64,000 nucleotides of DNA from positions 2,368,001 through 2,432,000 of the forward strand of contig CBDCSU010000006.1 in NCBI GenBank assembly GCA_965221775.1. The letters run 5' to 3'. Positions within the stretch are counted from its first letter, which is position 1; each line of letters starts with the position of its first letter. The translations under genes were made by a program, and so were the position numbers. This document shows, in pieces, positions 37,767-55,848 of this stretch. Source of the DNA: Candidatus Latescibacterota bacterium. GTDB taxonomy: Bacteria; Latescibacterota; UBA2968; UBA8231. The notes below the pieces were generated by a model, which ran no database searches, was not told where the DNA came from, and was given only the letters and a program-made list of their open reading frames with translations.

Positions 37767-38072
37767 CTATGGGGACTCCAGCTTCTCCTTGATCCGGAGA
37801 ACCTCGAGGGACTCCACGGCGTGGAGGACGCCTAGGTGGAGCTCTGGGGGGAGGATGAACCACACGGGGTGTCCGTGGGAGAGAGGAAAATTGGCGGCAT
37901 CGGTTGGCCGCACGTCCCCGGGCCCGTGCTCTGCTTTGTCGAACCAGCGGATGCCGAGGCGGAGGTGACCCCCGTGCATCACAGTCACGACGGCCCACCC
38001 CTCCTCCAGATTCATGTACACGAGATCCTGCACGTCCTTCATGCCGCGGATTGCGGCTTCGCTCATGGCCAT
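37767..38072 (-). CDS. Hypothetical protein
   Basis: RBS aaggag and plausible 100-aa composition. Confidence 0.55.
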   Translation of the reverse strand: MAMSEAAIRGMKDVQDLVYMNLEEGWAVVTVMHGGHLRLGIRWFDKAEHGPGDVRPTDAANFPLSHGHPVWFILPPELHLGVLHAVESLEVLRIKEKLESP

Positions 38073-38332
38073 CACTGCTGACTCCTTCCGGTTGAGGGGG
38101 ACAAACCAAGTAGGCCCGGTGGTCGGCGGCCAAGAGCTGTATCTGCCCAGTCAGGGTGTCCTTGACGAAGGACGTTGTGCCGCAGCGAATCGCCGACGCC
38201 CCCCCGGCCCGCCCGCTACCCTGTGTGCCGGAGATCCTACCGGCTTGCCCGATCCGTAAGCAAACGACAGGAAGACCATGAGGAGGGACGAGCATCCCCC
38301 CCGGGGGGAAGCTGATAGCACGTCATCCCATC

Positions 38333-38560
38333 TCATCCAACTTGATGCCGTTCAAACAGCAGATCGAGGGCCTCCAGCCCGAGAGCATGGACGGTCGTCT
38401 CGTTCTGGGCGGCGAGCACCTTCAATCGCTTCGCCTGCTCGGGTTCGAGGTACAGGACCGTGGCCTTCTTGCCACGCCGAGACGGGGCGATCTTGGCCTC
38501 GGCCTTCGGCTCGCCAGCGGTCCGCCCGGCGTCTGCGAGGGTTGGCTTAGCTTTGGACAT
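38333..38560 (-). CDS. Ribbon-helix-helix (ParG-like) centromere-binding protein
   Basis: KKATVLYLEPEQAKRLKVLAAQNETTVHALGLEALDLLF; overlaps the parA 3' end. Confidence 0.85.
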   Translation of the reverse strand: MSKAKPTLADAGRTAGEPKAEAKIAPSRRGKKATVLYLEPEQAKRLKVLAAQNETTVHALGLEALDLLFERHQVG

Positions 38561-39183
38561 GAGCCCCTCCTTCCGTCTGAGTCCATCGGTACAAGGCTTC
38601 GGTCTCGGTTGCCGCCAAGGATCGGGGCTCGGCTTCCTGAGCGGTCCTCCCGGCCGTGAACGCCCGGACGTGCGCGACCCGGGCCCCCAGGGTCACCGGA
38701 ACCCGAACTGCCTGGAAGCTCTGAATGGCCGTCGTCGCTTGGGCCGTCCAGTCGCCGCGAGGAGGGACAGCGTTCAGCACCACCGCCGCCGCCGTCTCCG
38801 CGATCCGGCCCACGTCCAGAGTCGCCGGGATGGCCGCCAGATCCACCGCGGACGGTCGACACGGCACGAGCATCAGATCCGCACAACGAGCCGCCTCCAC
38901 CGCCCCGCCGGCCTCTCGAGGAGCCGTGTCGATCACCGCCAAGGAGGCCCCTGCACCCCGGGCCGCATCGAGCACCCGCGCCAGCCGGGGTGGATGAGCC
39001 GTCACCACCGGCGGCGGATCTTCGCCTCGAAGGTCGCCCCAAACCGCCGTCGATCCCTGTTGGGTCCAGGTCGATCACAACAGCGTCGCCACCCGCGAGT
39101 TCGTGCGCCACCGCGAGGCCGACGGCCAAGGTCGTCTTGCCGCTCCCGCCCTTCTGTGATACCAGAGCAATCGTGCGCATCAT
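38547..39183 (-). CDS. parA: Short ParA/ParF partition ATPase; 1-bp insertion near 39059
   Basis: SQKGGSGKTT, IDLDP(Q)GS, IDTAP and LVPCRPS..DL. The two frames join at gacccaacagg. Confidence 0.88.
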
Positions 39184-39219
39184 GCTAACTATGCTACGAT
39201 GAAGACACCGCTCGCGCAA
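39178..39219 (-). promoter_or_regulatory. parA promoter (likely leaderless) with overlapping operator repeats
   Basis: Minus strand reads TTGCGC-17bp-TAGCAT-7bp-ATG; plus strand reads catcatgctaactatgct. Confidence 0.6.
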
Positions 39220-39381
39220 GGGAAGATCGTCGCCCCCGGAGGCTTCCGGGGCCCGATAGCCCGGAAGGGGGTTGGTTGGAGGTGGCCGGAAGGATTATCC
39301 GCCCGCCCCGTGCCCCGGCAAACACAGGCCCAAGGCCTAGCCTGCGCGTTCCGCGGGCGCGAACCCCCAGGAGAGGGGGGG

Positions 39382-39780
39382 CTACTGGATGAACTTCACT
39401 TGGTATGCCCTGTTGCGGAAACTTTTGCTGGAATCACGAATCAGCGCATGCCAGCCACTGGTGCCAGAGACGGAGGTCCCGCTCTCCGGCGTGCCCCAAA
39501 TCACCGCGGTATGCTCAACTTGGATGTAGACTCCATTCTGATTCTCATACCCAAAGAAGAGGACGGTGGGTTCGGCGCCAGAAGAACTCAAGGGGATGGA
39601 TGCATAACTGGGATTCCTCTCCGTGTAGTTCCGATTCAAGATCGTCCCTGTGTTGACCTGCACCTGCAGGCTGGCGCCGGACGGTCCTTGCGGTCCTTCG
39701 GGTCCCTCTGGCCCCATGGGGCCTTCGCAGGCGGCCAGGATCATCAACAACCCCAGCCAAAGTGCTCCACATCGCCTCAT
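39382..39780 (-). CDS. Collagen-like lipoprotein
   Basis: Lipobox LAAC followed by EGPMGPEGPEGPQGPSG. Confidence 0.8.
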   Translation of the reverse strand: MRRCGALWLGLLMILAACEGPMGPEGPEGPQGPSGASLQVQVNTGTILNRNYTERNPSYASIPLSSSGAEPTVLFFGYENQNGVYIQVEHTAVIWGTPESGTSVSGTSGWHALIRDSSKSFRNRAYQVKFIQ

Positions 39781-39836
39781 CAGTGGCTTTCCTTTGCTTT
39801 GTAGTTGGGGAAAGTGAGGCGGCGTCCTGCCAGCCT

Positions 39837-40084
39837 GTGTAGAGAAGGACCTAAACGTTTGGCTGCCAGGGAGTTATCCCGGCACAGGTCCGACACGGCG
39901 CACCCGCAGGAAGCAGGTAGCCCCTGCCGGCTCATCCGCCGGCGCGAGGACCTTCCTGCAATCCCAGCGGCGTCGGATACCTGTCACCATCTCCGAAGGC
40001 CCCTTGCTACCTTGGTAGTCTACTTCTGAGAGCGTGTAGAGAAGCACCTAAGCGTATGACCGCCAGGGAGTTACCCCGGCACAG
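39837..40084. repeat. 51-bp direct repeat pair (39837-39887, 40034-40084)
   Basis: 45/51 identical by manual comparison (gtgtagagaag.acctaa.cgt.tg.c.gccagggagtta.cccggcacag). Confidence 0.85.
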
Positions 40085-40859
40085 CCCGCAAGGTCACCAA
40101 GCCGCTCGCCGCCAGCAGGTAGCTACGATGGCAGCCGCTTCCAAAGCCGGAAGAAGTACGGCCAGCAGGGACCGCCCTCCCAGTCGCCCGGCGGAGCCTT
40201 CGCCCGCCACACCCGCGACAGCAGCTCGCACATCACCCGATCGCAGGCCTCCTCCTCGAGCTCTTGGTCGAGGCGGGGGTTGGGCTCGTGTTGCGGGGCC
40301 ACGGCCTACGACCCCTCCACCCGCTGGTCGGCCGCCAAAGGCTTCCCCGCCTCGCTCGACATGGCTCTGCGCCCTCCTTGGCTTGGGGGCGACATGATGT
40401 CTGGCAACAACTTACGGCTTCTCGGACCGGAAGGCCGCACGCACCGTTCTCGCCGGCCTTCGGCCCCCGGGGGCTGGTAGGAGGAGCCCCGTGGCAGGCC
40501 CCCGGCGACAGCACGCCAGGGAAGATGGGGCGGAGAAGGCCCCGATTCAAGCCCCCCAAGACGCCATCTGGCCCTTCGCGTAGTGGGCCGGCCTGTCCGG
40601 CGAGGCCCACTTTCCGGGAAGCCTATCTCTCCGGTCCGCGTAGAGGGGGGCGCAAGCGACTGGGCAGCAGCACGTTGGGCCCGGCACAGGCTAACTTGCG
40701 GTATGCGGAATTGCCGACAGTGACCCGCCTCGGAGGGGGGGAGTTGAACGGCCCGAGGGTGCGCCGTTCTATGTCCAGCTCCCGTGGGGAAGGACCCCGA
40801 GGGATTTTCGCGCCGAACGGGGGGAAACCCCGTGGGAGACGAGCATGGAACGGCAACCC

Positions 40860-41246
40860 TCACCTGTCCGACAGGTGGTCGATCATCGCGTCGAGAATTG
40901 CGATCAGTGCCTTGGTTTCCAGAACAAGACCAGAGCGCATGAGGTCGCGGACTTCATCCGAGTCGTCTGGAAAGAGTACATCTCCAACCACGCCGAAGAC
41001 TGGCTGGTCAAACACGAAGACATCAGCTTCCCGGTCATCGCCGACATCGAGGGCCGCCTCCAGGTCCCTCCTTAGCTCCTCCAAGCCTTCCAATCCGCTC
41101 TGCGACTTGATCGCCAGTAGTAGGGCGACGTTGAGGGCCAGAATCTTCCCCTGGCTCATGTTGTTCAGCCGGACGAGACGGTTGTAATTCTCTCCGAGCT
41201 GCTGGAATGTGTCGAGCAGTTTCTGTAGTGGATTCTCTTCGGCCAG
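40860..41246 (-). CDS. Hypothetical helical protein (probable CTG start)
   Basis: Frame is open upstream of the listed ORF to a CTG preceded by ggagggagg. Confidence 0.5.
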   Translation of the reverse strand: MAEENPLQKLLDTFQQLGENYNRLVRLNNMSQGKILALNVALLLAIKSQSGLEGLEELRRDLEAALDVGDDREADVFVFDQPVFGVVGDVLFPDDSDEVRDLMRSGLVLETKALIAILDAMIDHLSDR

Positions 41247-42352
41247 AAGTTCCCTCCCTCCTGCGGGGTGTGAGGAATGGTGGCCCCGGGTTCTTAGGAC
41301 CCCCTACCCCGAACGTCAAGGAACCCCACGGGACCCCCGCGGCCCCGACGCCGCCCGAAACCCCCCGAAATCGCCCGATCCGGCCGGCCCCGAGAATCGC
41401 CCAGGGCGAGCGGAGACGGGCCGCCAGCGCCGGATCGGCCCCGGCCGCGGGTCAGAAAGACGCCCCTCCCCCCCTCCAAGGCCGCCAGGAGCCGCCTCCG
41501 GCGCTCTGACGCCCTCCACCCCCCCAGACCCCCCGCATCAGGCCGGATCTCGCCCCCACGGGGGCCCCGAGGGCCGCCCAGGCCCGGGAACAGGGCCCCC
41601 GCGAGCGGATTCCGCACCGCCCGCGCCACGGCGCCAGCTCCCCCGACTCCCAACACCCGCGGCCCCGCCAGGCGCGCAGACGCCGCCTGAGCGGCTCCTG
41701 GAGGGCGCTGCCGAGGGCCCCGGCGCCCAGGGAGCTACACCACAACCCAAAACTTTGGTGTGAATCGAGGGCGCGGGGCACTTTGCCCCACCCGACCGAC
41801 CGCCGCGGGACCCGCGTTCGATCGGAACCCCCCCCCAGGGCCGGCACCCCGCCCTCGCGTGCCCCCTCGCGCCCGATCCACACGCTCTCGCGCCCTCGCC
41901 CCCGCCGCCGGCCCCGATCCGCGCCCGATCGCACCCTCGCCGTGGGTCCAGGCTGCGCCGATCGGGCCGTTCGAGGCCGCTTGTTACTGCCGACAATCGG
42001 CTGTAGCGCCTGTAACCACCCATCCCCCCCTCGATCCGCCCAACCCTCCTCGCCGGGCGCCGACGTCGTGGCCCGGATGGGATCGCCGCCGCCGGCGAGG
42101 CCATGGCCGCACGTGCCGGGAGGGCGAGTCACCGGCGGCCCTGTCCTCGCCGCTGCCCACTGTCTTGGGGGAGCTGATCGAGGCCGATTGAACCCCCGAT
42201 AAGGGACATTATCGCTGGTTCAAACCCCGGACAGCGATCCCGCCGGCCGGGATGGGGACCCGGTTTCTCCTGTCGGTAGCGGTCATTCCCCGAAGTAACC
42301 ACCCCGCCCCCTCGATCCGCGCACCCTCTCCGAGCCCCGGCGCCACCTGATG

Positions 42353-42427
42353 GCATGATTACCCTGCTAATCATGCTTGACAAAGGCATCCTCGGCGTAT
42401 TATCATGCTCATCATGCTTACTATGAT
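42353..42427 (+). promoter_or_regulatory. Sigma70 promoter of the small-gene array with iterated ATCATGCT operators
   Basis: TTGACA at 42377 and TATTAT/TATCAT -10 candidates. ATCATGCT occurs at 42370, 42402 and 42411, with an inverted copy at 42353. Confidence 0.75.
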
Positions 42428-42474
42428 CGCACACACACCCGATCATCTTACTGCTGAGGCAAGGAGGAATCCCA

Positions 42475-42686
42475 TGAGTGAGTTGACCACCGACCGGGCG
42501 GCGAGGGCCGATGCCGCTGCGGCAGGCTGCCACGTGGTCGAGACGTTGGCCGAGTGCCTGCCCGATGGCTCCGGCTTTCGGACCGTGAGGCGGGTAACCC
42601 GCTTCCGGATAGACAGCAGTCACGGACCCGCTTCGGAGATTCGCGAGGCTGCCGGCGAGGCGCTACGCGATCTGTTAGGAGGCTGA
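42475..42686 (+). CDS. Small hypothetical protein, first gene of the array
   Basis: RBS aaggagg. Confidence 0.6.
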
Positions 42687-42690
42687 GGCC

Positions 42691-43233
42691 ATGTCCAAGA
42701 CCATCCGCACCATCACACCCGAGATGCACGCGGCTCTCGACGCGGACCGTGAGGGCCGGCTGTCTCCGCAGGCTCGGAGCGCCATCGACACCGCCGAGAA
42801 GGACTGGCAGATGGCGAGCCACGCCGCCCACCCCTCGCACTTCACCTTCGACACGGCAGGCGATCGGGAGTTCCTCGTCGCCCGGCGCCGTCGCGACGGT
42901 GCGTTTCGTCGCTACATCACCGTCTGCCACCGGATCGGGCGCAACTACTACCGCCCGTCCTCTCTCCGCAAGCGCGGCCTGAGCCCGATGATGCGTACCG
43001 CCGTGGCGGCGCATGTGCGCGAGGTCCACGAGGAGATCCTGACGGTGGAGGGCACGCCGCCGTCGAGCGCGGAGCTGATGTGCCTCGCCGCCCTGTTCGC
43101 CGCCGGCAACGACGACGGGCAGATCACGCCGGGGTTGGAGGCCATCGCCGCCGAGGCGGCCCGGATCGGCTTCCACACCGCCGACACGTTGGAGACGCGG
43201 CCGGACCCCCGGCTGCCCGAGGAGGCGGCGTGA
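42691..43233 (+). CDS. Hypothetical phage-like protein
   Basis: RBS aggagg; TGATG-coupled to the next gene. Confidence 0.65.
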   Translation: MSKTIRTITPEMHAALDADREGRLSPQARSAIDTAEKDWQMASHAAHPSHFTFDTAGDREFLVARRRRDGAFRRYITVCHRIGRNYYRPSSLRKRGLSPMMRTAVAAHVREVHEEILTVEGTPPSSAELMCLAALFAAGNDDGQITPGLEAIAAEAARIGFHTADTLETRPDPRLPEEAA

Positions 43234-44305
43234 TGGAGTGGACCCTCCGAGAGGTCGCCGGGGTGCTGATGTTCCTCGGCGGCCCCCTCGTCATCGGCCT
43301 GCTCCCCTCGCTCGACCGGTGGTTGGCGCGCCGGCGCGAGAGGAGGGGCTGATGCCCAAGCCCATGATCGACCACGAGGCGCAGATCGTGCGCCCCATCA
43401 TCGACGAGCTCCCCGGTGGGCGCTTCCGGGGCCGGGTCGGGGGCTACCGCTCGACGCTGTTCACCCATGAGGAGGACGCGCAGGACTGGTGCGCCGACAT
43501 GGCTCACGAGGGTCTGCTGTCCGAGGGCGAGGACCCGGAGGACTGGGTTGTGCTGCCGGCCACCGTTCACATGGGAGGGAGCTGATGGCCTACCGTGCCG
43601 GCTTCCGCGCCATCCGCCGGGTGAGCGCCAACCCCACCTACCGGGAGTGCTGCCGCCAGGCTCACCGGACCGTGTGGCAGGCTCTGCGGTGCGATCCGGG
43701 CGCCGATTGGATCGAGTGCCCCCACGGGCGCAAGCACGACACCTGCCACGACTGCTACGCCGAGAGGAGGCGCTGATGGATTGGGCGCAGGTCACCCTGA
43801 TGACCGTGGTGCTTGTCGGCCCGGTCCTCGCCGTCGTGTTCGCCGTGCTGGAGTGGTGGACGTGGTGGCGCGACGAACGGCGGGGGGAGCATCCCCCGCG
43901 CCGGTGCGGGAGGCCGTCATGACCCTTCGCGCCAGGATCGTCGACGTGCGCCGCCGGATCGCCGAGGGGTGCGGGCTGGTAGCCTCGATCGAGGCCGCAT
44001 CCACCACGGACGCCGAGTACAACACCCTCATGGATCTGTGCAACGCCGCCTGTGAGGACGACTACGACGGGCCGGACATGACGGGGGATCAGGCTCTCGC
44101 GATCCTCGCCAAGATGGAGCCCGTCTGGCTCTACACCGTGGTCGAGGCTGAGATGTTCGGCTCCTCGGCCTGGCTGGTGGTGCGCGAGGACGGGGCCGTG
44201 TGCGGCTACCGGCACGGGCTGTATCCGGCCCTCGAGTACGCCGTCGAGCGCATGGAAGCCGACGAGCGCACACGCCACCTGTGGGAGGAAGCCCCTTGCC
44301 GCTGA
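43233..44305 (+). CDS. Five coupled small ORFs (43233-43352, 43352-43585, 43585-43776, 43776-43922, 43919-44305)
   Basis: Each has a TGATG/ATGA overlap and a ggagg RBS. Two are TM peptides and one is Cys-rich. Confidence 0.6.
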
Positions 44306-44359
44306 CGAGTGGGCCGGCCGGCGGGCCGGCTCCGAAATGCCCCTTCGGGGGCATACGGC
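44298..44359 (+). ncRNA. Type I hammerhead ribozyme
   Basis: Stem I gccg/cggc, CUGACGA, stem II closed by G-C (gggccggcc/ggccggctc), GAAA, stem III tgcccc-UUCG-ggggca and AUA cleavage triplet (cut after 44355). Confidence 0.85.
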
Positions 44360-44400
44360 TATCCCGCCGAGAGCACCCCGTATCCCTTCAGGAGGGAACC

Positions 44401-45069
44401 ATGACCACCTTGCAGGACATCCCGACGGCGGCGCGCCTGCGCGAGCTCGCCGCCCACGTGGAGAAGCTGCCCAGGCAGCCGCTGCGCAACGGCTGCTACA
44501 AGCCGTCGCACATGGGCACCGGCAGCCTCTACGCGCCGCCCCGCGGCTTCAACATGAGCACCTACGCCGCCGCTCACGCGGCGCCGGACGGGGGCCGGTG
44601 CAACACGGCGGCCTGCCTCGCCGGCCACGCCTGCTCCCTGTGGACCGATCTGCCGGCCCACAACTGGGACGCCCACCACGGACAGATCGCCCTGGGGCTG
44701 CGAGCCGCCGAGCGCAACTGCCTGTTCATCCCGCAGATCGCCACCCTCCACATGCGGCCCGAGGTGAACGGCACGCTGTCGGAGATCGAGCCGGCCACCG
44801 CCGCCGAGGCGTGCCGCCGGCTCGCCGACATCCGGGGCGCCGAGTACGTGCACGGCGAGCGGTGGGAGCACTGGCCGCAGTTCGCCGGCGCCCACGACAA
44901 CGCCGTGGAGCGCATGCTGACGCGGCGCCTGTGGGGCACCCTGGAGAGCCTGCGCGAGGACGCGGAGCTGTATGACGGCATCCTGTGCCCGACGTGCGGC
45001 GAGGACTTCACGCTCGACCTGGTCTGCCCGGTGTGCGACCTGCGCCGGGTGAGGGGGGCCGGCGGATGA
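44401..45069 (+). CDS. Hypothetical phage protein (paralog of 46222-46764)
   Basis: TAARLRELAAHVE...FNMS.Y...CNTAACLAG, with a C-terminal CxxC pair. Confidence 0.7.
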   Translation: MTTLQDIPTAARLRELAAHVEKLPRQPLRNGCYKPSHMGTGSLYAPPRGFNMSTYAAAHAAPDGGRCNTAACLAGHACSLWTDLPAHNWDAHHGQIALGLRAAERNCLFIPQIATLHMRPEVNGTLSEIEPATAAEACRRLADIRGAEYVHGERWEHWPQFAGAHDNAVERMLTRRLWGTLESLREDAELYDGILCPTCGEDFTLDLVCPVCDLRRVRGAGG

Positions 45070-45272
45070 TCCGGAATCGGAAGCGCCGTCAGCACCTGGA
45101 GCAGTTCGGCATCGACGGCACCGGCACGGAGACCGACCTGTCGGCTCGCGCCGCACGCCGCTACCAGCTGGCGAAGGCCGGCCATCAGTTCGCGTGGCCG
45201 TCCTACCTGTGCGGCGAGGAGCTGCCGTGTGGGATGTGCGACGCCTGCGTTCGAGGGGGGGTGTTGGACTGA
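45066..45272 (+). CDS. Small Cys-rich protein
   Basis: ATGA-coupled; PCGMCDAC. Confidence 0.55.
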   Translation: MIRNRKRRQHLEQFGIDGTGTETDLSARAARRYQLAKAGHQFAWPSYLCGEELPCGMCDACVRGGVLD

Positions 45273-45640
45273 TGGCCATGACCATGACCCCCCTTCGGGC
45301 TCTGCGTGCCGCGCGCCGGCTGCTGACCGACAACCGGAAGTGGTGCCAGGGGGCTTCGGCCCGTGACTACGACGGGCGCGCAACCGACGTGCATGACCCC
45401 CACGCCGTGGCCTGGTGCGCCGGCGGCGCCCTGTGGAAGGTGGTCCCCGGAACCCTGCACGGCATCGACAACGACGTGTGCGATCGCGCCCTCCAGCGGC
45501 TGTGCGAGGCCGCCACGGGGGAGACGGAGGCGAAGGCCGGCGCCGCCAACCTCAACGACGACAGCGACCACGTGGCCGTGCTGGCGATGTACGACAAGGC
45601 CATCCGCTTCGAGGAGTGGGAGGAGGAAATCTACGCATGA
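45272..45640 (+). CDS. DUF6197-like phage protein
   Basis: LRAARRLL...WCQG...WCAGGAL...NDD..H..VLA.YDKAI. Confidence 0.7.
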   Translation: MAMTMTPLRALRAARRLLTDNRKWCQGASARDYDGRATDVHDPHAVAWCAGGALWKVVPGTLHGIDNDVCDRALQRLCEAATGETEAKAGAANLNDDSDHVAVLAMYDKAIRFEEWEEEIYA

Positions 45641-45983
45641 CCACCCTGGAAGCTCTCCGCGCCGCGCGCCGGCTCATCACGGACCCCCGGCACTGGTGCC
45701 GGAGGTCCTCGGCGAGAGAGGCCGACGGCACCAACTGCTCTGTCCACCACCCTGGGGCTCGCAAGTTCTGCGCCGCCGGCGCCCTCTGGAAGGTCACCAA
45801 CAGCTACCTCGGCGCCGAGCGCGAGGACGGCATCTCCGAGGCCGCTTCCCTGCGGCTTGCGAGGCGGCCGGCATGAAGATCGTCGACTTCAACGACGCGG
45901 ACACCACGGACCATGTGGCGGTCCTCGCCGCCTACGACAAGGCCATCCGCTTCGAGGAATGGGAGGAGGAGATCTACGCATGA
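45637..45983 (+). CDS. DUF6197-like tandem paralog, frameshift near 45850
   Basis: Same motifs split over two frames; C-terminus YDKAIRFEEWEEEIYA is identical. Confidence 0.65.
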
Positions 45984-46225
45984 GCACGATTCGCGTCAGC
46001 GTCAGCAGCACCACCGTGGTGCAGATCGAGAACAAGGACGCCGAGCCTCTGCTCTCGATCATGGCGCAGCCCGACAACGCCCGGCCCTTCGTGTTCGTGC
46101 ACGAGGGCGCCGAGACGACGGTCCAGCCGTCCGACAACGGGAAGCAGCTCCACAGCCGCAACGCCACCGGCCACACCGTCGACGGCGGGATCGTCGTCAC
46201 CGTGGAGGAAGGAGACGGCTCGTGA
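45980..46225 (+). CDS. Small beta-rich hypothetical protein
   Basis: ATGA-coupled with RBS ggagga. Confidence 0.6.
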   Translation: MSTIRVSVSSTTVVQIENKDAEPLLSIMAQPDNARPFVFVHEGAETTVQPSDNGKQLHSRNATGHTVDGGIVVTVEEGDGS

Positions 46226-46764
46226 ACTTCCCCACCCACCCCGTCACCGTGGCCCGGCTCCGGGAGTTGGCCGGCCACGTCGAGGAGATGCAGCACCTGC
46301 GCTTGGTCCTGGTCGACGCGCCGCCGGTCGAGGGGGCCGTCGTGTCCACGATCGCGGGGGGTCCCGAGCACTTCGACGCCTTCAACATGTCTCGGTACGC
46401 CGTCGACACCGAGTGCGGCACGGTGGGCTGTCTCGCCGGGCTCGCGTGTGGCAAGTGGGCCGAGGACGCCGACTCGTCGTGGTGGGGGTTCGCCAGCGGC
46501 ATGCGGGCGCTGCGCTTGGACACGCAGAACAAGGAGCAGTGCGAGTGGGCGCAGGCTCTGTTCGCGCCGCCGATGGGCGACATCGAGCTCGAGAGGCTGA
46601 AACCGACGACGGCGGCTCGCGCCTGCCGACGCTTGGCGGGCCTGCTGCACGCGATCGGGCAGTCGGGCCGGCCGTGGCAGTGCCACACGGACGCGGAGAC
46701 GCTCGCCGACGCGCTGTGGGGTCCCGAGGAGATCCTCTATCACGACGAAAGGAGCCCTGTCTGA
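46222..46764 (+). CDS. Hypothetical phage protein (paralog of 44401-45069)
   Basis: TVARLRELAGHVE...FNMSRY...CGTVGCLAG. Confidence 0.7.
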   Translation: MNFPTHPVTVARLRELAGHVEEMQHLRLVLVDAPPVEGAVVSTIAGGPEHFDAFNMSRYAVDTECGTVGCLAGLACGKWAEDADSSWWGFASGMRALRLDTQNKEQCEWAQALFAPPMGDIELERLKPTTAARACRRLAGLLHAIGQSGRPWQCHTDAETLADALWGPEEILYHDERSPV

Positions 46765-47528
46765 TGCAGATTCGCAGCCTCAAGCCAGTGCGCGGCGTGC
46801 TGGTGCGGATCCATACGCACCTGCGCAACGAGCCGAGTGCCGAGGACATCCGCACGTCGATCTCCGCCGACGAGTGCCGGCTCACGGTCTCGCATTCGGT
46901 CAACGATCCGGTGCCGCACGTCGACGACCTGCTGAGGATGTGGGCCGAGCACTACGTGCGGTGCCACAAGGTGGGCGTCACCGGCCTCGAGTACCGCATG
47001 CTGCCCGAGGAGGGCAGCGACCTTCTCATGGCCGTCCGCTTCGACGGCGATCCTTCTGACTGAAAGGAGCCCCATGACCACCTTCGATCCCCCCACCAAG
47101 TCCGACGCCGTGGTGCTGCGCGAGTTCTTCCGGCGCGACGGGCAGACCCTCGACCAGTTCCACGAGGAGCTGAAGGCTGGAGCCGGCCGACAAGCAGGAG
47201 TTGGCCGCGCTGGCGCGGGAGGAGCTGGCCGCGTGATCGCCAAGGACGTACAGGCCGTGCTGAACTCCGCCCGGCGCTGGCTGGAGGCCGCCGAGGCGGA
47301 CGACGCCGACGCGATGGCGGAGGCCGACGAGGACCTGCACCAGTGCATGGAGGAGGCGCAGCGATGACCTGTCACTGCTGCCACGCCGAGACCCCCGATC
47401 CCCTGCACCGGGTCCTCGACGGCGAGGTGAGGCACGTCTGCGAGCCGTGCGCGGAGAGCATCGACGAGGCGTTGGTCCTCGACGGGCTCAGTGCCAACCC
47501 CGCTGATCCCGTCCTGAAGGGCGGGTAG
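46764..47528 (+). CDS. Three small ORFs (46764-47063, 47074-47367, 47364-47528)
   Basis: Coupled starts with RBS; the last is a CxxC...CxxC zinc-finger peptide. Confidence 0.55.
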
Positions 47529-47591
47529 GTGCCGAAACGCGGGGGCCGACCGGCCCCCGCTTCGACGGGCCGCTCCCGTCCTGACGATGGC
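47508..47591 (+). ncRNA. Variant/degenerate hammerhead ribozyme
   Basis: gcc-GAAA-c-10bp stem III-UUC-gacggg. Stem I can pair with upstream cccgtc-CUGAAG (A9 missing) or downstream cccgtc-CUGACGA-u-ggc. There is a 15.2/16.2 mismatch. Confidence 0.55.
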
Positions 47592-47636
47592 TTCGCCGGG
47601 GTCGCTCCCCGGCCCACATCCCACTACGGAGGGAAC

Positions 47637-48272
47637 ATGCACGACATCGAGATCGCCCCGATCCGGCCGGAGAAGTGGCCGGACGACGCGAGGGCCTGGA
47701 CGCGGTCCACGGCCGATTTCCGGCTCAACGAGCGCCTGGGGTCCGCCCTGGCGCTGACCGTGGCCGGCGAGGACTGGTGGGTGGACGGCGCCGCCTGCTT
47801 CAAGGGGACGTGCCCGAAGGGCTACCAGAAGCGGCTGATGGCCGGCCGGCGCTGGCTCGATAACCCGGACCCGGCCGGCAAGGAGGCCGCGGAGAAGATG
47901 GTCCTGAGGCTGATGAACGAGGAGCTGTCGGACCCGCGCCGGTTCGTGCCCGCGTTCACCCGGATCAAGCCGCACCACTCGGGCCGCGGCGAGCAGCACA
48001 TCGACGTGTTCGTGCCGAAGGGGGCCACGAACCTGATCAAGTGGCGCCCCTTCGAGGCCCGCTACGTCGGGTTCGCGCTGCGCCGCTTCCGGGGCTGCCG
48101 GTTCACCCTCGGCAACAAGGGCGACACCCTGATCGTGCGCGACGACACCGGGGCGATGGTGGGCGCCATCATGCGGATGTCGATCCCGGCCGACGAGCGC
48201 CGGGGCGGGAAGCGCAAGCGCAGCGTCAACGGGGTCGTGCCGGAGCCGACGGAGGCCGCGCAGGCCGCGTAG
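47637..48272 (+). CDS. Hypothetical phage-like protein
   Basis: RBS ggaggg and high-GC3 codon usage. Confidence 0.65.
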   Translation: MHDIEIAPIRPEKWPDDARAWTRSTADFRLNERLGSALALTVAGEDWWVDGAACFKGTCPKGYQKRLMAGRRWLDNPDPAGKEAAEKMVLRLMNEELSDPRRFVPAFTRIKPHHSGRGEQHIDVFVPKGATNLIKWRPFEARYVGFALRRFRGCRFTLGNKGDTLIVRDDTGAMVGAIMRMSIPADERRGGKRKRSVNGVVPEPTEAAQAA

Positions 48273-48354
48273 AGCCCTTCAGGAGACCGAAATCGGGGGC
48301 GGGCCTGGGTGCCCGCCCTCATTCCCTTCTCTCACGAACCAAGGAGACGGAACA

Positions 48355-48594
48355 GTGAACAAGGAGCGACGGGACCGGATCAGGGGGCTGCGCGACGAGC
48401 TCAACGCGATCCGGACGCAGATCGACGACATCGAGGCGGAGGAGCGGGAGGCGTTCGACAACCTCCCCGAGAGTCTGCAGTACGGCGAGCGCGGCGAGAC
48501 CCTGAGCGCCGCCGCCGACAGCCTCTCCGAGGCGTCCGAACAGATGGACGCGGCCGCCACCCAGCTGGAGGAAGTCATCGGGGAGGGGAGCTGA
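48355..48594 (+). CDS. Conserved small phage helical protein
   Basis: MNKERRDRI...EEREAFDNLPESLQYGERGE resembles a widespread phage family (from recall). Confidence 0.75.
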   Translation: MNKERRDRIRGLRDELNAIRTQIDDIEAEEREAFDNLPESLQYGERGETLSAAADSLSEASEQMDAAATQLEEVIGEGS

Positions 48595-48595
48595 C

Positions 48596-49378
48596 ATGCC
48601 GCAATACTACTTCCCCGCGCCCCTGGCCGAGGAGTTCACCGGCACCCCGGACACCACCGACATCATCTCGATCTACAAGGTGACCGGCGCGGCGCACGCG
48701 CCCTACTGGCAGGCGCAGGACTCGCGCGGATTCGTGAAGGCGGAGTGGACCCCGCCGGCGCCGCTGCGCGAGGACCTGCCGGAGACCGAGCGACGGAATC
48801 TGCTGGTGGCGTGGGCGCAAGCCTACGAGCGCAGCGACCTGGTGGAGACGCCGCCGACCGGGCAGCCCGCTTGGGTGTTCGTGCATCTGCACAGCGTCAC
48901 CGCGCCGGGCAACCCCTTCTACATGTACGCGGCAGTGAGGCCGAAGGCGGGACAGGCGTTCGAGCACATCCTGCGCTACGCCTCCTACGGCCGTCCGCAG
49001 GACTGGGACTGGCTGTTCCGCGACCTGGAGGACGGCGAGGAGCATAAGCGCGGCGAGCGGCCCCTGCAGCCCGAGTTGGCCCGGCTGCCGGAGCGCGATC
49101 TCGACGCCGAGAGCAAGACCGCGCTGCCCGACGGGTCCTCCATGACCGTCCTGGCTTCGTGGCCCAACGGCTACCGGTGCTACGAGAAGCAGACCGGCAA
49201 CGAGCGCTACGAGTGGCCGGACGGGAGCGCCATCACCGTCCAGGGGCAGGTCGCTTGGGACTTCGGGTTCTACCGCGACCGGCTCGCCGATCAGGCCGTG
49301 ATCGAGGCATGCGGCGACGACGTGGCCCCGATGTTCGCGTGGCCGGGAGAGGTGGCCGTGGCTGGCGAGCTGACCTGA
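48596..49378 (+). CDS. Hypothetical protein (paralog of the IS-interrupted gene 49484/52357-52979)
   Basis: Shared LA.EFTG.P, AWVFV.L, YAAVRP.AG.AF.H.L, DWDWL, DGSAI and AVIEAC. Confidence 0.75.
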   Translation: MPQYYFPAPLAEEFTGTPDTTDIISIYKVTGAAHAPYWQAQDSRGFVKAEWTPPAPLREDLPETERRNLLVAWAQAYERSDLVETPPTGQPAWVFVHLHSVTAPGNPFYMYAAVRPKAGQAFEHILRYASYGRPQDWDWLFRDLEDGEEHKRGERPLQPELARLPERDLDAESKTALPDGSSMTVLASWPNGYRCYEKQTGNERYEWPDGSAITVQGQVAWDFGFYRDRLADQAVIEACGDDVAPMFAWPGEVAVAGELT

Positions 49379-49475
49379 CGAACAACGGCGGCTCCAAGCC
49401 GTCCTGAGCGCCGGAAACGGGCGGGCACCCCGGGTGCCCGCCCTCACCAACCTCTCTCACAACCCGCAAAGGACC
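49375..49475 (+). repeat. Conserved structured intergenic motif (copies at ~48285-48345 partial, 49375-49475, 52981-53085)
   Basis: CTGACGA..acggcggct.caagccgtc.tgagcgccGGAAA-gggcggg.acc/ggtgcccgccc-TC..ctctcac..aagga. Confidence 0.85.
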
Positions 49476-49713
49476 TGGAAATCATGGCGATCCATTTGGG
49501 AATTATATACGAGTTTAGCCTTGGGCCTCATGGGAACCCGTCGTACATACGGGCGCGGACTGCTTCCGCCTGTGCGGTATGTCGGGTCGCCCCTCGAATA
49601 GAACAGCCTTCGGGCGAATAGGGGGGAACTTCCCGCGAAAGCGAGGCAGTCCGCAAACGGCCCGGCGCCACGCGGGAGCGCCGGCCCCACCCCCTCACCC
49701 AAGGAGGCGGACT

Positions 49714-50252
49714 TTGCGGACTGCCCTGATCTTCTCAACCCTGCTTCTCATGGCGTGCCAGGGCCGCCCGGCCCCGTAGGACCCTCAGGCCCTCCGTCCA
49801 GAGCCAAGGCGACGACCGATCAACAGGAGACGGCCGAGTGTATCGTGAATGAGATCACGATCACCGGCGACAACGTGCAGGTGCATGGGCTGTCCGTGGC
49901 GGACTCGGTGTACTACGCACGAGACACCCTGGAAGTCACGTCGGCGTTCTCCCTGATCACCTTCGACCTCAACTACTCCACGGACATCGACCAAGGGTCC
50001 CGGAAGGGCTGGGCCTACTACGATGACGCCATCGTCGCGGATGAAGTCCAGGGGGTTTTTCTGGCGGCCACGGGAGGCTACCAGGACCCGAGCGAATGGC
50101 AGCCGTTCAACCTGCTGGCAGCAGAGGAGGCCGGGTCCGACGAGACGCCGGAGTATGAGCTTGAAGACGGGGAGATCTACATCTCAGACCCGGACGATGT
50201 ACTGGCGTCCGAGTACGACGGGACACCGGGGCGTACAGGCGCTTCGTGGTAA
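49714..50252 (+). CDS. Collagen-like lipoprotein passenger (frameshift near 49762)
   Basis: RBS aaggagg, LLLMAC lipobox, then GPVGPSGP in another frame. Confidence 0.55.
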
Positions 50253-50261
50253 CGATCCTGT

Positions 50262-50453
50262 CTATCCCGGCCCAGTGAGTTCTTCACGCGGGTCAGGCGC
50301 CTTGTCAGCGTAGGCGTCTGACCCGCGCTTCAGGTACCGCCAGTTCTTCTTGGGCGGCCCCGCCATGCAGGCCCGGGCGATCTCCTCCGGTGGAGCCGGG
50401 ATCTTCTCCGGCATCACGTGCTTGGGTGGGCGGCCGCGCTTGCGCTTCGACAT
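50262..50453 (-). CDS. Small IS1595-associated protein
   Basis: MPEKIPAPPEEIARACMAGPPKKNW resembles short ORFs recalled next to IS1595. Confidence 0.55.
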   Translation of the reverse strand: MSKRKRGRPPKHVMPEKIPAPPEEIARACMAGPPKKNWRYLKRGSDAYADKAPDPREELTGPG

Positions 50454-50474
50454 GATCCAGAATCCCCCCCCTTC

Positions 50475-50747
50475 TTATCGGCGGCGGTAGATGTCGTGCG
50501 GGCCAACGGCTAGGGCTTTGGCTACTTCGGCATCACCGACCTCGAAAATGAATCTGAACTTGTCATTGAGCCTAACGCCGTGGCAACCCTTCCATGGACT
50601 TTCTAGGGTTTCCAGGTTTCGCCCTGGCGGAACCACCCCACAGATCAACTCGGACATGGCTGAAGCCAACTCAGTTTTCATTCTGGGGGGAAGAGATCGG
50701 ACGGCTTTTTCGAACTTTTTTGGTATATCGAAGGAGGATACCTGCAT
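50475..50747 (-). CDS. RelE/ParE-superfamily toxin
   Basis: 90 aa; FEKAVRSLP...HGVRLNDKFRFIF...AVGPHDIY. Confidence 0.7.
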   Translation of the reverse strand: MQVSSFDIPKKFEKAVRSLPPRMKTELASAMSELICGVVPPGRNLETLESPWKGCHGVRLNDKFRFIFEVGDAEVAKALAVGPHDIYRRR

Positions 50748-50748
50748 A

Positions 50749-51216
50749 TCACTCCTTCGTTTCGAGCAGTCGGAGAAGCTCCTCCCCGCTGTGCACTCGG
50801 TGTGCAACAGGGGAGGCCCGGCCGTCATGGATCATGATGGCCCAACGCAGCTCTTGTAGAGTTTCGGCGAAGTGACCAAGCACGAGAACCATGGATCTCT
50901 TTTCGTGCGGTGACATCTCTCGCGGGACTCGACCCAGTTGCTTCACGGAAGGCCCTCCGACCAGACGATCACGCTCTTCGCAGAAGTAATCCTCAGCCTT
51001 CTTCAGCAGGTCCTTTGCGGCATCGTCAGGGTCCAATTCTTGCTCAGAAGGACATGCCTCTACGAGTCTCATAAACCCATTTGCGAAGTTGTCCATCATC
51101 TGCAGAAGGAGTGCGTATTCGTTCTGATTCTGATAGAACCAGCGAACCGCATGGACAACGTGGTGCACGCTGTCCTTATCCATCATGGGTGAGTCATGAG
51201 CTACGGCCATGCTCAT
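50749..51216 (-). CDS. Putative cognate antitoxin
   Basis: Lies directly upstream of the toxin and is lower in GC; C-terminus HSGEELLRLL. Confidence 0.55.
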   Translation of the reverse strand: MSMAVAHDSPMMDKDSVHHVVHAVRWFYQNQNEYALLLQMMDNFANGFMRLVEACPSEQELDPDDAAKDLLKKAEDYFCEERDRLVGGPSVKQLGRVPREMSPHEKRSMVLVLGHFAETLQELRWAIMIHDGRASPVAHRVHSGEELLRLLETKE

Positions 51217-51320
51217 GGAGAGGGCTCCTCATCGAGGGGTTTTCAGGGTCCCATGGTACGGACGGAAACAGCCGAGCACCAAGCTGCACAAAGTAGATCT
51301 GCCCGGATGGTCACCCCCGG

Positions 51321-52300
51321 TCAGATCGCCTCACGCCGCCAAGTGGCGGACGGCTTGATCAGGTCCTTGTACCGCAGCCTCTTGAAGGCCCCTGCCCGGA
51401 CCATGCCGCGCATCTGGTCGATGGTGTCCTGGGGCCGCTGGTTGTGCCGGCCCTCGAACTCCGCGACGTAGCGCGGCAGGTGCTTGGGGCTCATCCCATG
51501 GTAGGTGCCGTGGTACCCGCGCTTCAGCATGGACCAGAAGCTCTCCAGGCCGTTGGTGTGCGCTTGGCCGTCCACCCAAGCGCCGACGGAGTGCTTGCAT
51601 GCTTGCAGGTCTGGCGTTTCCGGAGGCCCTCGTAGGACGCGTTCTCGTCAGTGTACTTGTCGGCGTCCGGCTCCACGTGGGCCGCGACGAAGCCGTGCAA
51701 GCTGGCCTTGGTGCCGTCCGGCAGCACCCTGGCGCGAACCTCATTGGTCTGGCGGTCCTTGGCGCCTACCACGATGGCCTTGCCCACGGCCCCACGTCCG
51801 GCATGGAGCTTCTTCGCGGCGTGCTTGTTGCCCTCCAAGCCGCCCACGTACGTCTCATCCAACTCGACCGGCCCGTCCATCGGCTCAGGGTCTCGGGTGG
51901 AGTCGGCCCACGTCTCCCGGATGCGGTGCGCCAAGTGCCACGCGGTCTTCTGAGTGACGCCCAGGTCGCGGTGCAGTTTCATGCTGGACGTGCCCTTCAA
52001 GCCGGTAGCCATCAGGTAGAACGCCCAGGCCCAAACCTTGAAGCCCAGCTTGGAGCCCTGCATGACGGTCCCGGTCTTCACCGAGAAGTGCCGCCGGCAG
52101 CCCCGGCAACGGTAGGGCTGCGGCTTCCGGCTCGCCACGGTCTGGATATTCAACGAACCACAGTGGGGGCAGGCAACTCCGTCCGGCCACCTGGTCTGCG
52201 CGAACCACGCCTCCGCGGCCTCGTCCGTAGGGAACTTCTCTCCCAACTCGATCAGGGTCAACCCCTCGCGGTAGTGCTTGCCGGGTGCGCTCTGTGCCAT
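51321..52300 (-). CDS. IS1595 (ISXO2-like) DDE transposase, frameshifted near 51600
   Basis: RWPDGVACPHCGS zinc ribbon, VELDETYVGG, YTDE, HTNGLESFW and KHLPRYVAEF. Confidence 0.92.
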
Positions 52301-52356: not shown

Positions 52357-52979
52357 GCCCCCCACCTCGCCGGCGAGTTCACCGGCTACCCGGAGGAAAC
52401 GGAGTTGGTGCTGGTGCGCAGCCTCAGCACCCTGCCCAACACCTGGGAGGCCATCGAAACGATCCCCCGGCCCTACGGGATGCTCGCGTGCGCCACGCTG
52501 ACGGCCGAGGGGGGGTGGAGCCCTTCACCGAGGACGACCGCAAGGACCTGCTGACCAAGTGGGCGGCAGAGTTCGACCGGCTGCGCGGCGAGGATGTGGC
52601 CCCGGTGGCCGCCTGGGTGTTCGTGGAACTGGCGCGACGGGGCACGACGCGCTACTACGCAGCGGTTCGACCGAGCGCCGGCGATGCCTTCGCCCACGTA
52701 CTCCACCACCGCTGCCACTACCGGCACGAGGACTGGGACTGGCTCCACGTCGAGAACGGCAACCGCCTGCCCGGCGTGCCGAAGCCGACCCGCTCCCCGG
52801 ACAGTGCCTACGATCGCTTCGAGTGGGGAGACGGCTCCGCCATCGTGGCCGACAGCTTCACGTGGTGGTTCGGCTTCCACTGGGGTCGCCTCACCGAGGA
52901 GGCCGTGATCGAAGCCTGCAGGGAGGTGGCCCCGGAGTGGGCCAACCCGGCGGAGGTCCACCTGCCGAGGGCAAGCTGA
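52357..52979 (+). pseudogene. 3' part of IS-interrupted paralog of 48596-49378
   Basis: Homologous motifs; additional frameshift near 52510. Confidence 0.7.
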
Positions 52980-53094
52980 CCTGACGAAGGGAGACGGCGG
53001 CTTCAAGCCGTCTGAGCGCCGGAAAGGGGCGGGTACCTCTGGGTGCCCGCCCTCGCTTTACCCTCTCACCACTCTGGAAAGGACCCAACCCCCT

Positions 53095-53977: not shown

Positions 53978-54174
53978 GTCAGCCAGCCCCGAGCTGGAGC
54001 CACGGAATCGCCCCCTGGCGACAGACGAACCGGCACCCCTAAGCGCCCCCTCACAGTAGGGCCGCCCGAAAGCCGGGAGCCGGGCCACGAGATCGCCGCG
54101 ACCTGGGCAGCTTGCGCGGTTCCCGGCACGTCCCATAGATTCTCTCACGCCTCCCTGAAAGGAGCACTCCCACA

Positions 54175-54543
54175 GTGAGCGCCGCGAACGCCAAGGACCA
54201 GGTGAAGGCCTTGGAACACGAACAGATGGACCGCCTCACAGAGGCCCATGGGTTGATCGCTCAGCGCGAGGCTCTCCACAAGGGCTTGGTGTATTTCCCG
54301 AACCACCGTGGCACCATCACTCAACACATTGATGACATCGAGGCGCGCTTCAACCAGCTACGCAAAGGGAGCCGCCATGGGATGGCGTTGATGAAAACAG
54401 TCATAGAAGACTTACCTTTCTCCCCAGACCAAGCCGAGCTCATGGCGAACTACGTGCTGTTCATCGAAGGGCGGCAGTTGCCTGCGCTGCCCCCGCTGCC
54501 CAAGGGGGAGCTCCCCAAGAGCCACCGCCAGGGACGCGGCTGA
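54175..54543 (+). CDS. Hypothetical protein
   Basis: RBS aaggag and GTG start. Confidence 0.6.
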   Translation: MSAANAKDQVKALEHEQMDRLTEAHGLIAQREALHKGLVYFPNHRGTITQHIDDIEARFNQLRKGSRHGMALMKTVIEDLPFSPDQAELMANYVLFIEGRQLPALPPLPKGELPKSHRQGRG

Positions 54544-54562
54544 CAGAGAGGAACACGCACCC

Positions 54563-55093
54563 ATGATTGAACCTGTCCTGAAAGCAAAGTTGACTCGTAG
54601 CGTCTCGCGCTTCCTTCTGAGGCTGGAGGACCTGTTCGGGCCCCGTGACCGTCGATTTCCCTCCGTGGAGGTTGACCGATGGGAGTCTGTCTCCAAGGGG
54701 CCTTCCCAGATCTATAGCGCGGTGGATGGTCGCGTCACCATCATGATCACCGCGCACGTGAGCAACCTCGGAGCCCTGTGGGAGTTGGCGCATGAATGCG
54801 TCCATCTTCTGAACCCGTGGATCCCGGACATAGAAGGGATGCCGACCAACGTCCTCGAGGAGGGGCTGGCCTCTTGGTTTCAGAATTGCGTTGCCCATGA
54901 AAGCAGGGGGGAACTTCTGCCGGCCTACGCACGGGCCGAAGCTCTGGTGCGTCCGCACATGGTTGTTCTCCCCCCTGCCATTCGGCGCCTGCGCGAACAG
55001 GGCGTCCGCATCGGGGAGATCAACCCATCCCACCTCCACAGGGTCGTCGACTCCGCAACGGCGGAGCAACTGTGCCAGCGGTGGGCAGGGTAG
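54563..55093 (+). CDS. ImmA/IrrE-like HExxH metallopeptidase
   Basis: LWELAHECVHLL...NVLEEGLA. Confidence 0.65.
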   Translation: MIEPVLKAKLTRSVSRFLLRLEDLFGPRDRRFPSVEVDRWESVSKGPSQIYSAVDGRVTIMITAHVSNLGALWELAHECVHLLNPWIPDIEGMPTNVLEEGLASWFQNCVAHESRGELLPAYARAEALVRPHMVVLPPAIRRLREQGVRIGEINPSHLHRVVDSATAEQLCQRWAG

Positions 55094-55355
55094 AGCTACA
55101 GGATTGATGCCGGTTGGCAGGTTGCGCCGGCTGCGCGCCTGCCATCGACGTCGGAACCCTTGATCGTCTGCGGAGGTCGTTCTAGCCGTCAACTCGTCGT
55201 AGGCAAAGCAGGAGAGGCCCGCCCCCTCTGCGGATCGGGAGCGTCGCTCCGTTCTTCCCCCCCTCGAGAGCCAGAGGGAGAGAACCTTTCTGTCACCTCC
55301 CCCCTCCAACCGCTGGACCGCTGTCGTCGCCGCGTTCATTCTCGCCACGGGGGCT

Positions 55356-55676
55356 GTGGTTTCCGTGAAGCTGTGGGCCGATGCCTATACCTACGTCGCG
55401 TCCATGTACGGCTCCCAACGCTACGCGATCGCGCCGACCGGGCGATGGGGGGTGGCCTACGTAGTGGACAAGCAGACCGGGAAGACATGGTACATCCGAG
55501 GTGCCAACAGGTTTCTATCTCGCGCCCCTCGCGAAGCGAAAGAGAAGGCCGTGACTACACCTGTACCAGAAACTCCGGTCAGCCAGTTCCCCGGTTTTGC
55601 TGAATGGGCCAAACACGAGTTGGCCAAAGAGGAATCGGCCGAATCTGTTCCTGCGAGGTCCCATGTCAGCCCGTAG
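55356..55676 (+). CDS. Membrane-anchored hypothetical protein (start probably further upstream)
   Basis: RYAIAP...AYVVDKQTGKTW, with a hydrophobic segment upstream in frame. Confidence 0.5.
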   Translation: MVSVKLWADAYTYVASMYGSQRYAIAPTGRWGVAYVVDKQTGKTWYIRGANRFLSRAPREAKEKAVTTPVPETPVSQFPGFAEWAKHELAKEESAESVPARSHVSP

Positions 55677-55767
55677 TGGCCCGTGGCAAATGTGGGCAGT
55701 ATCGTGGGGGAAGAACACAGTCAACTTCGTAAGCGCAATCAAATCAATCACTTTAGATGGCAAGTTG

Positions 55768-55787
55768 GATTCCCACCTTCGGCACCA
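55768..55787 (+). other. att-like site: duplicated tRNA 3' end (tRNA-Leu-like)
   Basis: gattcccaccttcggcacca gives T-arm 3' half, acceptor strand and CCA with no 5' tRNA half. It is preceded by AT-rich aatcaaatcaatcacttta. Confidence 0.7.
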
Positions 55788-55848
55788 ACCTGTGTTCCCG
55801 CCTGTTCCCCCCTTGCCCCATAGGTCGGTCCTCCAAAGGGGCTCGCCC

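Follow-up and report, generated by a model that had tools for sequence, protein, structure and literature searches.

The question raised by this locus is whether the junction between two small bacterial genes encodes a self-cleaving hammerhead ribozyme, and whether the stop codon that lies within the ribozyme core has any part in its control. The locus was analysed in a window of 64,000 nucleotides (C6:2368001–2432000) from a Candidatus Latescibacterota genome of 5.36 Mb, 70% GC and six contigs, and all positions below are those of the window unless another contig is named. The 62-base stretch 44298–44359 on the + strand contains a hammerhead core and three helices in the type I order, as seen in the sequence and by a descriptor of our own, and the core and stems drawn there by a first-pass annotation are borne out by both. 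Our preferred reading, to which we give a probability of about 0.55, is that the candidate is a genuine, weak and atypical type I hammerhead that processes an operon RNA. It is favoured by the fit to the consensus, by the rarity of such a match and by its placement between genes, and from these we infer the folding, the cleavage and its products.

Read from its 5′ end, the motif opens with GCCG (44298–44301, +), the 5′ strand of stem I, which falls within the last two sense codons of the upstream gene. The core strand CUGACGA (C3 to A9, 44302–44308, +) leads into the stem II hairpin (44309–44333, +), in which the pair G10.1–C11.1 is followed by a bulged U (44310), nine further pairs and the loop GGCG (44320–44323). 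The second core strand, GAA (G12, A13 and A14; 44334–44336, +), connects to the stem III hairpin (44337–44354, +), formed by A15.1–U16.1 and six more pairs under a UUCG loop. A17 (44355, +) and the 3′ strand of stem I, CGGC (44356–44359, +), complete the motif, and hammerhead numbering places the predicted scissile bond between 44355 and 44356. By the descriptor, stems I, II and III have 4, 10 and 7 pairs, respectively. All 13 consensus core positions are present (C3, U4, G5, A6, N7, G8, A9, G12, A13, A14, A15.1, U16.1 and H17), as are the three pairs adjacent to the core (G44309–C44333, C44356–G44301 and A44337–U44354), and the helix layout is that of stem I open and stems II and III closed. 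Core and core-adjacent pairs together pass the consensus filter described by Perreault et al. 2011 (PMC3088659), from which the criterion of core-adjacent pairs is taken. The label canonical, given in the first-pass annotation, suits the consensus core but not the four-pair stem I, the long and bulged stem II or the silence of the Rfam models. If the candidate is real, these stem proportions and the miss by curated models are its only unusual points.

The motif straddles the end of one gene and the spacer before the next. The upstream ORF (43919–44305, +, 128 aa), for which no Pfam or PHROG family was found, does end, as had been pointed out earlier, with the TGA at 44303–44305, which is U4-G5-A6 of the core. 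Stem I had been called coding sequence, which is true of its 5′ strand, whereas the 3′ strand is noncoding. The downstream ORF (44401–45069, +, 222 aa) begins with the ATG at 44401 and has an AGGAGG ribosome-binding site at 44390–44395 (+); the two flanking genes are co-directional and separated by a spacer of 95 nt, in which the predicted cut falls 50 nt past the stop that overlaps the core and 45 nt before the next AUG. The candidate is contained in a row of small + strand ORFs at about 42400–49400, whose proteins, apart from a DUF6197 protein (45194–45640), are almost without matches to known families. A promoter-like site at 42377–42406 (+; TTGACA-18-TATCAT, 11 of 12 positions of a sigma-70-type site), identified by consensus match, could be the start of this row.

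The wider setting, 38400–60200, is a strain-specific island with many ORFans. It holds a ParA-like ATPase gene (38422–39219, −), an IS1595 transposase (51524–52300, −) and, at 55597–60180, a protein of 1527 aa that combines M9 collagenase-like, WD40 and Ig-like domains. The GC content drops to 0.57–0.62 in 2-kb windows from 54001 to 60000. No tRNA genes were found in the window, and the 1.2 kb at 43900–45100, comprising the spacer and both flanking genes, has a DNA match in none of 60 relatives.

Such a setting is familiar from bacterial hammerheads, which, according to PMC3088659, occur in horizontally acquired DNA and often flank single genes of polycistronic RNAs. Within the phylum, two loci match the Rfam type II hammerhead model RF02276. 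L093, from another genome of the phylum, has its match at 1501–1573 (−) with 49.8 bits, and L094, from the same family as the genome analysed here, at 1501–1563 (−) with 36.9 bits against a cut-off of 37. In L093, stem III is a GC-rich helix of 10 bp, the ribozyme begins on the final base of the stop of a 72-aa ORF, and another ORF starts within a few bases. Placement from a stop to a ribosome-binding site is, judging by L093, the norm for real examples.

The principal rival reading is that the candidate is a chance look-alike, namely two ordinary GC-rich hairpins whose flanking bases happen to spell the core, with no meaningful self-cleavage in the cell. The hairpins would then serve in the protection of mRNA 3′ ends, as a pause or termination signal, or as a processing site for a protein nuclease. 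We regard this as a serious possibility, although a less probable one than a genuine ribozyme. It gains from other gene ends of the island (48287, 49410 and 53018), which likewise have strong hairpins with CCG(G)AAA before them. It loses from the position of the motif, on the sense strand between a stop and a ribosome-binding site, which is where PMC3088659 and the example of L093 place real hammerheads. A role in termination fits poorly as well, since a scan of 38000–52000 for intrinsic terminators gives nothing at 44300–44400 and there is no U-tract, the sequence after stem III being ACGGCUAUCCC.

How often a motif of this kind would arise by chance was estimated in two ways. A loose type I descriptor (stem I of at least 4 pairs, stems II and III of at least 3), run over both strands of the 5.36 Mb, has the candidate as its sole match. 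Scans of the genome with type II and type III descriptors gave one type II and two type III matches, all weak and none in the window, and the reversed genome gave one weak descriptor match. Across 539 decoys with permuted cores, the mean was 1.7 loose matches per genome, so a loose match alone is uninformative, a point on the side of a chance look-alike. The quality of the stems points the other way: stems II of at least 10 and III of at least 7 pairs, as in the candidate, were reached by none of the 539 decoys, whereas 2 of them reached at least 8 and at least 6 pairs, respectively, and 5 reached at least 21 pairs in total. Under a crude ORF mask, about 30% of the decoy matches lie outside masked ORFs; the mask stretches the downstream ORF over the candidate's own spacer, and this comparison of context was therefore set aside for the candidate.

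The second null counts compact three-way scaffolds in which the unpaired bases number exactly 7, 3 and 1, irrespective of their identity. Genome-wide, 7308 scaffolds have stems II and III of at least 6 pairs each, and 107 have a stem II of at least 10 and a stem III of at least 7 pairs; this supply of strong scaffolds, present regardless of core, favours a chance origin. The candidate nevertheless carries 12 of the 12 core features scored per scaffold, with runners-up at 10 (one scaffold), 9 (one) and 8 (27), and full 12/12 matches are expected only about 4 × 10−4 times per genome, which argues against chance. The two nulls differ more than tenfold because what counts as comparable is defined differently in each, and we adopt 10−3 to 10−2 per genome of this kind as a working figure for the chance rate of a comparable match. 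Such rarity is convincing for one genome; by extrapolation, it is not decisive for a candidate drawn from a very large scan, in which a few chance matches of good quality would be expected. Perreault et al. (PMC3088659) also expect chance matches to the consensus in large databases, and this too belongs on the side of a look-alike.

The lack of an Rfam hammerhead match is a further point for a chance look-alike. Searches with the Rfam 15 hammerhead families do not report the candidate at the gathering score over the whole window, nor at E ≤ 10 on 261 nt or on 74 nt, although for the shorter of these the output extended to unrelated matches of only 7.6 bits. Over the whole genome, with 150 of the 579 first-look candidates scored, the type I model RF00163 picks out six other places at 14–18 bits and not the candidate. 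The same model finds nothing over its cut-off in 121 relatives or in 151 genomes of the phylum, and in the latter search the control genomes likewise gave none. Sub-threshold RF00163 matches in relatives, L017 and L018, are not hammerheads by eye and were set aside. We suspect that the low score of the candidate reflects its long stems II and III, which a model of 45 positions perhaps charges as insertions.

Predicted folding separates the two hairpins from the rest of the motif. For the 62 nt, the hammerhead fold has −37.3 kcal/mol against a minimum of −39.5 kcal/mol, and in the nearest-neighbour model its share of the ensemble is 2% for the isolated 62 nt and about 5 × 10−5 in context. The apical seven pairs of stem II are present in every predicted fold, and the pairs of stem III have probabilities of 0.86–1.0; in context, the predictions keep the apical hairpins but lack stem I and the base of stem II. 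Two hairpins that are stable alone, beside a stem I and a stem II base that fail to appear, are what the chance reading would predict. The thermodynamic share nonetheless carries little weight, because L094, whose hammerhead looks real, likewise has another structure as its predicted minimum-energy fold. Over 81 nt, the minimum-energy fold does not exceed those of shuffled sequences in stability (z = −1.5). A pairing of the ribosome-binding site with 44275–44288 was considered and rejected; it appears in one minimum-energy fold but not in the centroid, and the corresponding 131-nt fold has z = −0.73.

A tertiary contact linking stem I to stem II is also hard to locate. Extension of stem I is blocked by a U–U mismatch after the fourth pair, and the sole candidate for such a contact is the loop II sequence GGCG with CGCC at 44365–44368. 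The latter lies within CCGCCG (44364–44369, +), which is complementary to CGGCGG at 44319–44324, that is, to loop II with its closing pair, and which is paired with 44319–44324 in one minimum-energy fold. From its sequence, CCGCCG could possibly engage in a pseudoknot or contribute to a competing fold, and we estimate that a four-base GC complement would be expected nearby by chance. According to the part of PMC3088659 used here, natural hammerheads usually have short stems II, and a loop–loop contact or pseudoknot between stems I and II gives them their speed at about 0.5 mM Mg2+. As no such contact is evident in the candidate, its cutting would probably be slow at cellular Mg2+.

Relatives of the locus are few. 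Protein searches gave one relative for each flanking protein, P0001 for the upstream and P0003 for the downstream one, both encoded on one public contig of 12.4 kb. P0001 is 92% identical to the upstream protein and ends four residues earlier, with ...HLWED in place of the ...HLWEEAPCR of the window; P0003 is 68% identical to the downstream protein. Among contigs of metagenome run X5, one carries an identical copy of 44113–44435, and a variant contig matches 44113–44289 with 11 differences and is unlike the window thereafter. No RNA sequencing run was listed as containing the stretch. As judged by comparison of these sequences, 44289/44290 is a mosaic boundary, at the very point where the relative's protein ends. 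Beyond it lie the final four codons, the stop and all of the motif. With its stop four codons earlier, the relative's ORF does not share the overlap of stop and core, which is therefore not conserved.

Wider searches extended this picture to other collections. A search of 131 other genomes of the class gave no copy of the spacer itself, and phage records and 60 relatives searched by DNA gave no usable homologous locus. Both flanking proteins were searched against genome, metagenome and viral collections with no homologous locus found, and the sole match from those collections, L019, was dismissed as a chance match of 25 residues. Among viral contigs, 72 matched the pattern CTGACGAG..CCGAAAT..ATAC; these yielded 13 descriptor matches in 11 of the 72 loci, with stems mostly of 3–5 pairs and none resembling the candidate. 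With no second copy among the 131 class genomes and no like hammerhead among the 72 viral contigs, covariation lends the candidate no support, and its status as a singleton without a homologue counts in favour of a chance look-alike.

The coincidence of stop and core had been taken in the first-pass annotation to suggest translation-coupled control of cleavage. A ribosome terminating on the core UGA would, in that proposal, hold the core and stem I open, so that cleavage would depend on translation of the upstream gene. The overlap is real, and from the established size of the ribosome footprint, a ribosome on the stop would cover about 44298 to about 44317, a stretch that takes in stem I's 5′ strand, the core and the beginning of stem II. 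A cut 50 nt past the stop would, moreover, leave the upstream ORF intact. Yet the overlap is a feature of this one sequence, as P0001 stops four codons earlier and the DNA diverges at 44289/44290, and the UGA of any CUGA is in frame one time in three. Stops inside CTGA.GA are also common enough to end 112 of 6865 crude ORFs, and L093 suggests that a flush stop is a common packing habit. The proposal presupposes a real ribozyme, and the second case cited for it, at 49375, is not a hammerhead. We find the proposed control unsupported on account of the missing conservation, the one-in-three frame and the failure of the case at 49375, and judge it highly improbable. Equally improbable, in our view, is a more elaborate version in which a natural minimal hammerhead with no contact joining stem I to stem II uses the upstream stop as its U4-G5-A6, such that the operon RNA would be cut mainly when the upstream ORF is poorly translated. 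The best interpretation of the overlap is that tight packing produced it incidentally, and not that it acts as a control device.

The motif at 49375 had been described as showing the same overlap of stop and core. The CUGACGA there does overlap the stop of ORF 48596–49378, but neither stem I nor stem II is there: stem I lacks even a single pair, A9 and the nearest helix are four unpaired bases apart, and what follows is GAAA, a 12-pair hairpin closed by A...U, and then C. A second copy at 52981–53054, behind ORF 52488–52979, has a stem I of one pair and seven unpaired bases after A9. The full copies of this module span 49362–49446 and 52968–53054, and a partial copy of the hairpin lies at 48287–48325, after the stop at 48271–48273, the TAG of ORF 47529–48272. 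Each full module is laid out as the last codons, UGA in CUGACGA, a small hairpin, CCGGAAA, a GC hairpin of 11–12 pairs and a CUCUCAC tail. The two are approximately 90% identical, as opposed to 36% protein identity between the paralogous genes that precede them, and their consensus fold has the UGA in a hairpin loop and one compensatory pair; the module matches no Rfam family. We conclude that 49375 and 52981 are copies of a repeated post-stop hairpin module and not hammerheads; within the island, the module could serve in termination or as a signal for processing.

The shared layout raises a further reading, in which the candidate would belong to an island-specific family of post-stop elements, each composed of the heptamer on the stop, GAAA, a hairpin closed by A...U, and H, and either noncatalytic or derived from hammerheads that have decayed everywhere except at the candidate. 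The recurrence of this layout at 49375–49445 and 52981–53054 speaks for such a family, as does the contrast between the near identity of the two modules and the divergence of their genes. However, the modules have no alignable similarity to the candidate beyond two short strings, and a fold with the UGA in a hairpin loop is a different structure. In a crude set of 6865 ORFs, which includes neither the candidate nor the 52981 copy, 92 are followed by GAAA, a hairpin and UH, and this feature coincides with a stop inside CTGA.GA three times against 1.5 expected. We consider membership of such a family the least probable of the readings. Elsewhere in the genome, at G000 C4:466820 (−) and C4:252399 (−), a stop in CTGA.GA is followed within 70 nt by GAAA, an A–U-closed hairpin of 10–15 pairs and H, and neither site passes the hammerhead descriptor.

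Under the preferred reading of a genuine type I hammerhead, the polycistronic RNA would fold and self-cleave behind A44355. Of the two products, the upstream message would retain its stop codon and finish with a pair of stable hairpins and a 2′,3′-cyclic phosphate, and the downstream message would start with a 5′-OH at C44356, with a leader of 45 nt before the AUG and an intact ribosome-binding site. If it cleaves, the candidate adds a type I hammerhead to a lineage in which the curated type I model found none above its cut-off, and would show that hammerheads combining long GC-rich stems with a very short open stem escape curated models. The locus would then be another case of the punctuation of mobile-element operons by ribozymes, a phenomenon known since 2011. 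Should cleavage not occur, the candidate serves as a warning that a perfect consensus on strong hairpins can be a false positive in genomes of 70% GC. Were translation gating true, the locus would act as a switch for mRNA processing, borne on the mobile island of a bacterium that is associated with sponges.

Among known systems, the candidate is close in architecture to the type I hammerheads of prophages and mobile elements (RF00163, clan CL00010), with which it shares, according to PMC3088659, the core, the type I helix order, the core-adjacent pairs and a position between co-directional genes in horizontally acquired DNA. It differs from them in going unreported by Rfam, in its four-pair stem I and bulged ten-pair stem II, in having no evident contact that joins stem I to stem II, and in being a single copy without homologues instead of a cluster. 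The type II hammerheads of L093 and L094 resemble it in their long GC-rich closed stems, short open stem and placement from stop to ribosome-binding site; they are another circular permutation and match a curated model, whereas the candidate matches none.

Minimal hammerheads are laboratory constructs without tertiary contacts. Similar to these, the candidate has the core and three plain helices only, with activity expected mainly at high Mg2+, but the laboratory forms are engineered, and a natural, selected minimal hammerhead would be unusual. As with ordinary operon stem-loops, such as mRNA stabilisers and terminators that lack a U-tract, two stable GC-rich hairpins stand directly after a gene; unlike the candidate, in which 13 specific unpaired bases are all in place, such stem-loops have no need for them.
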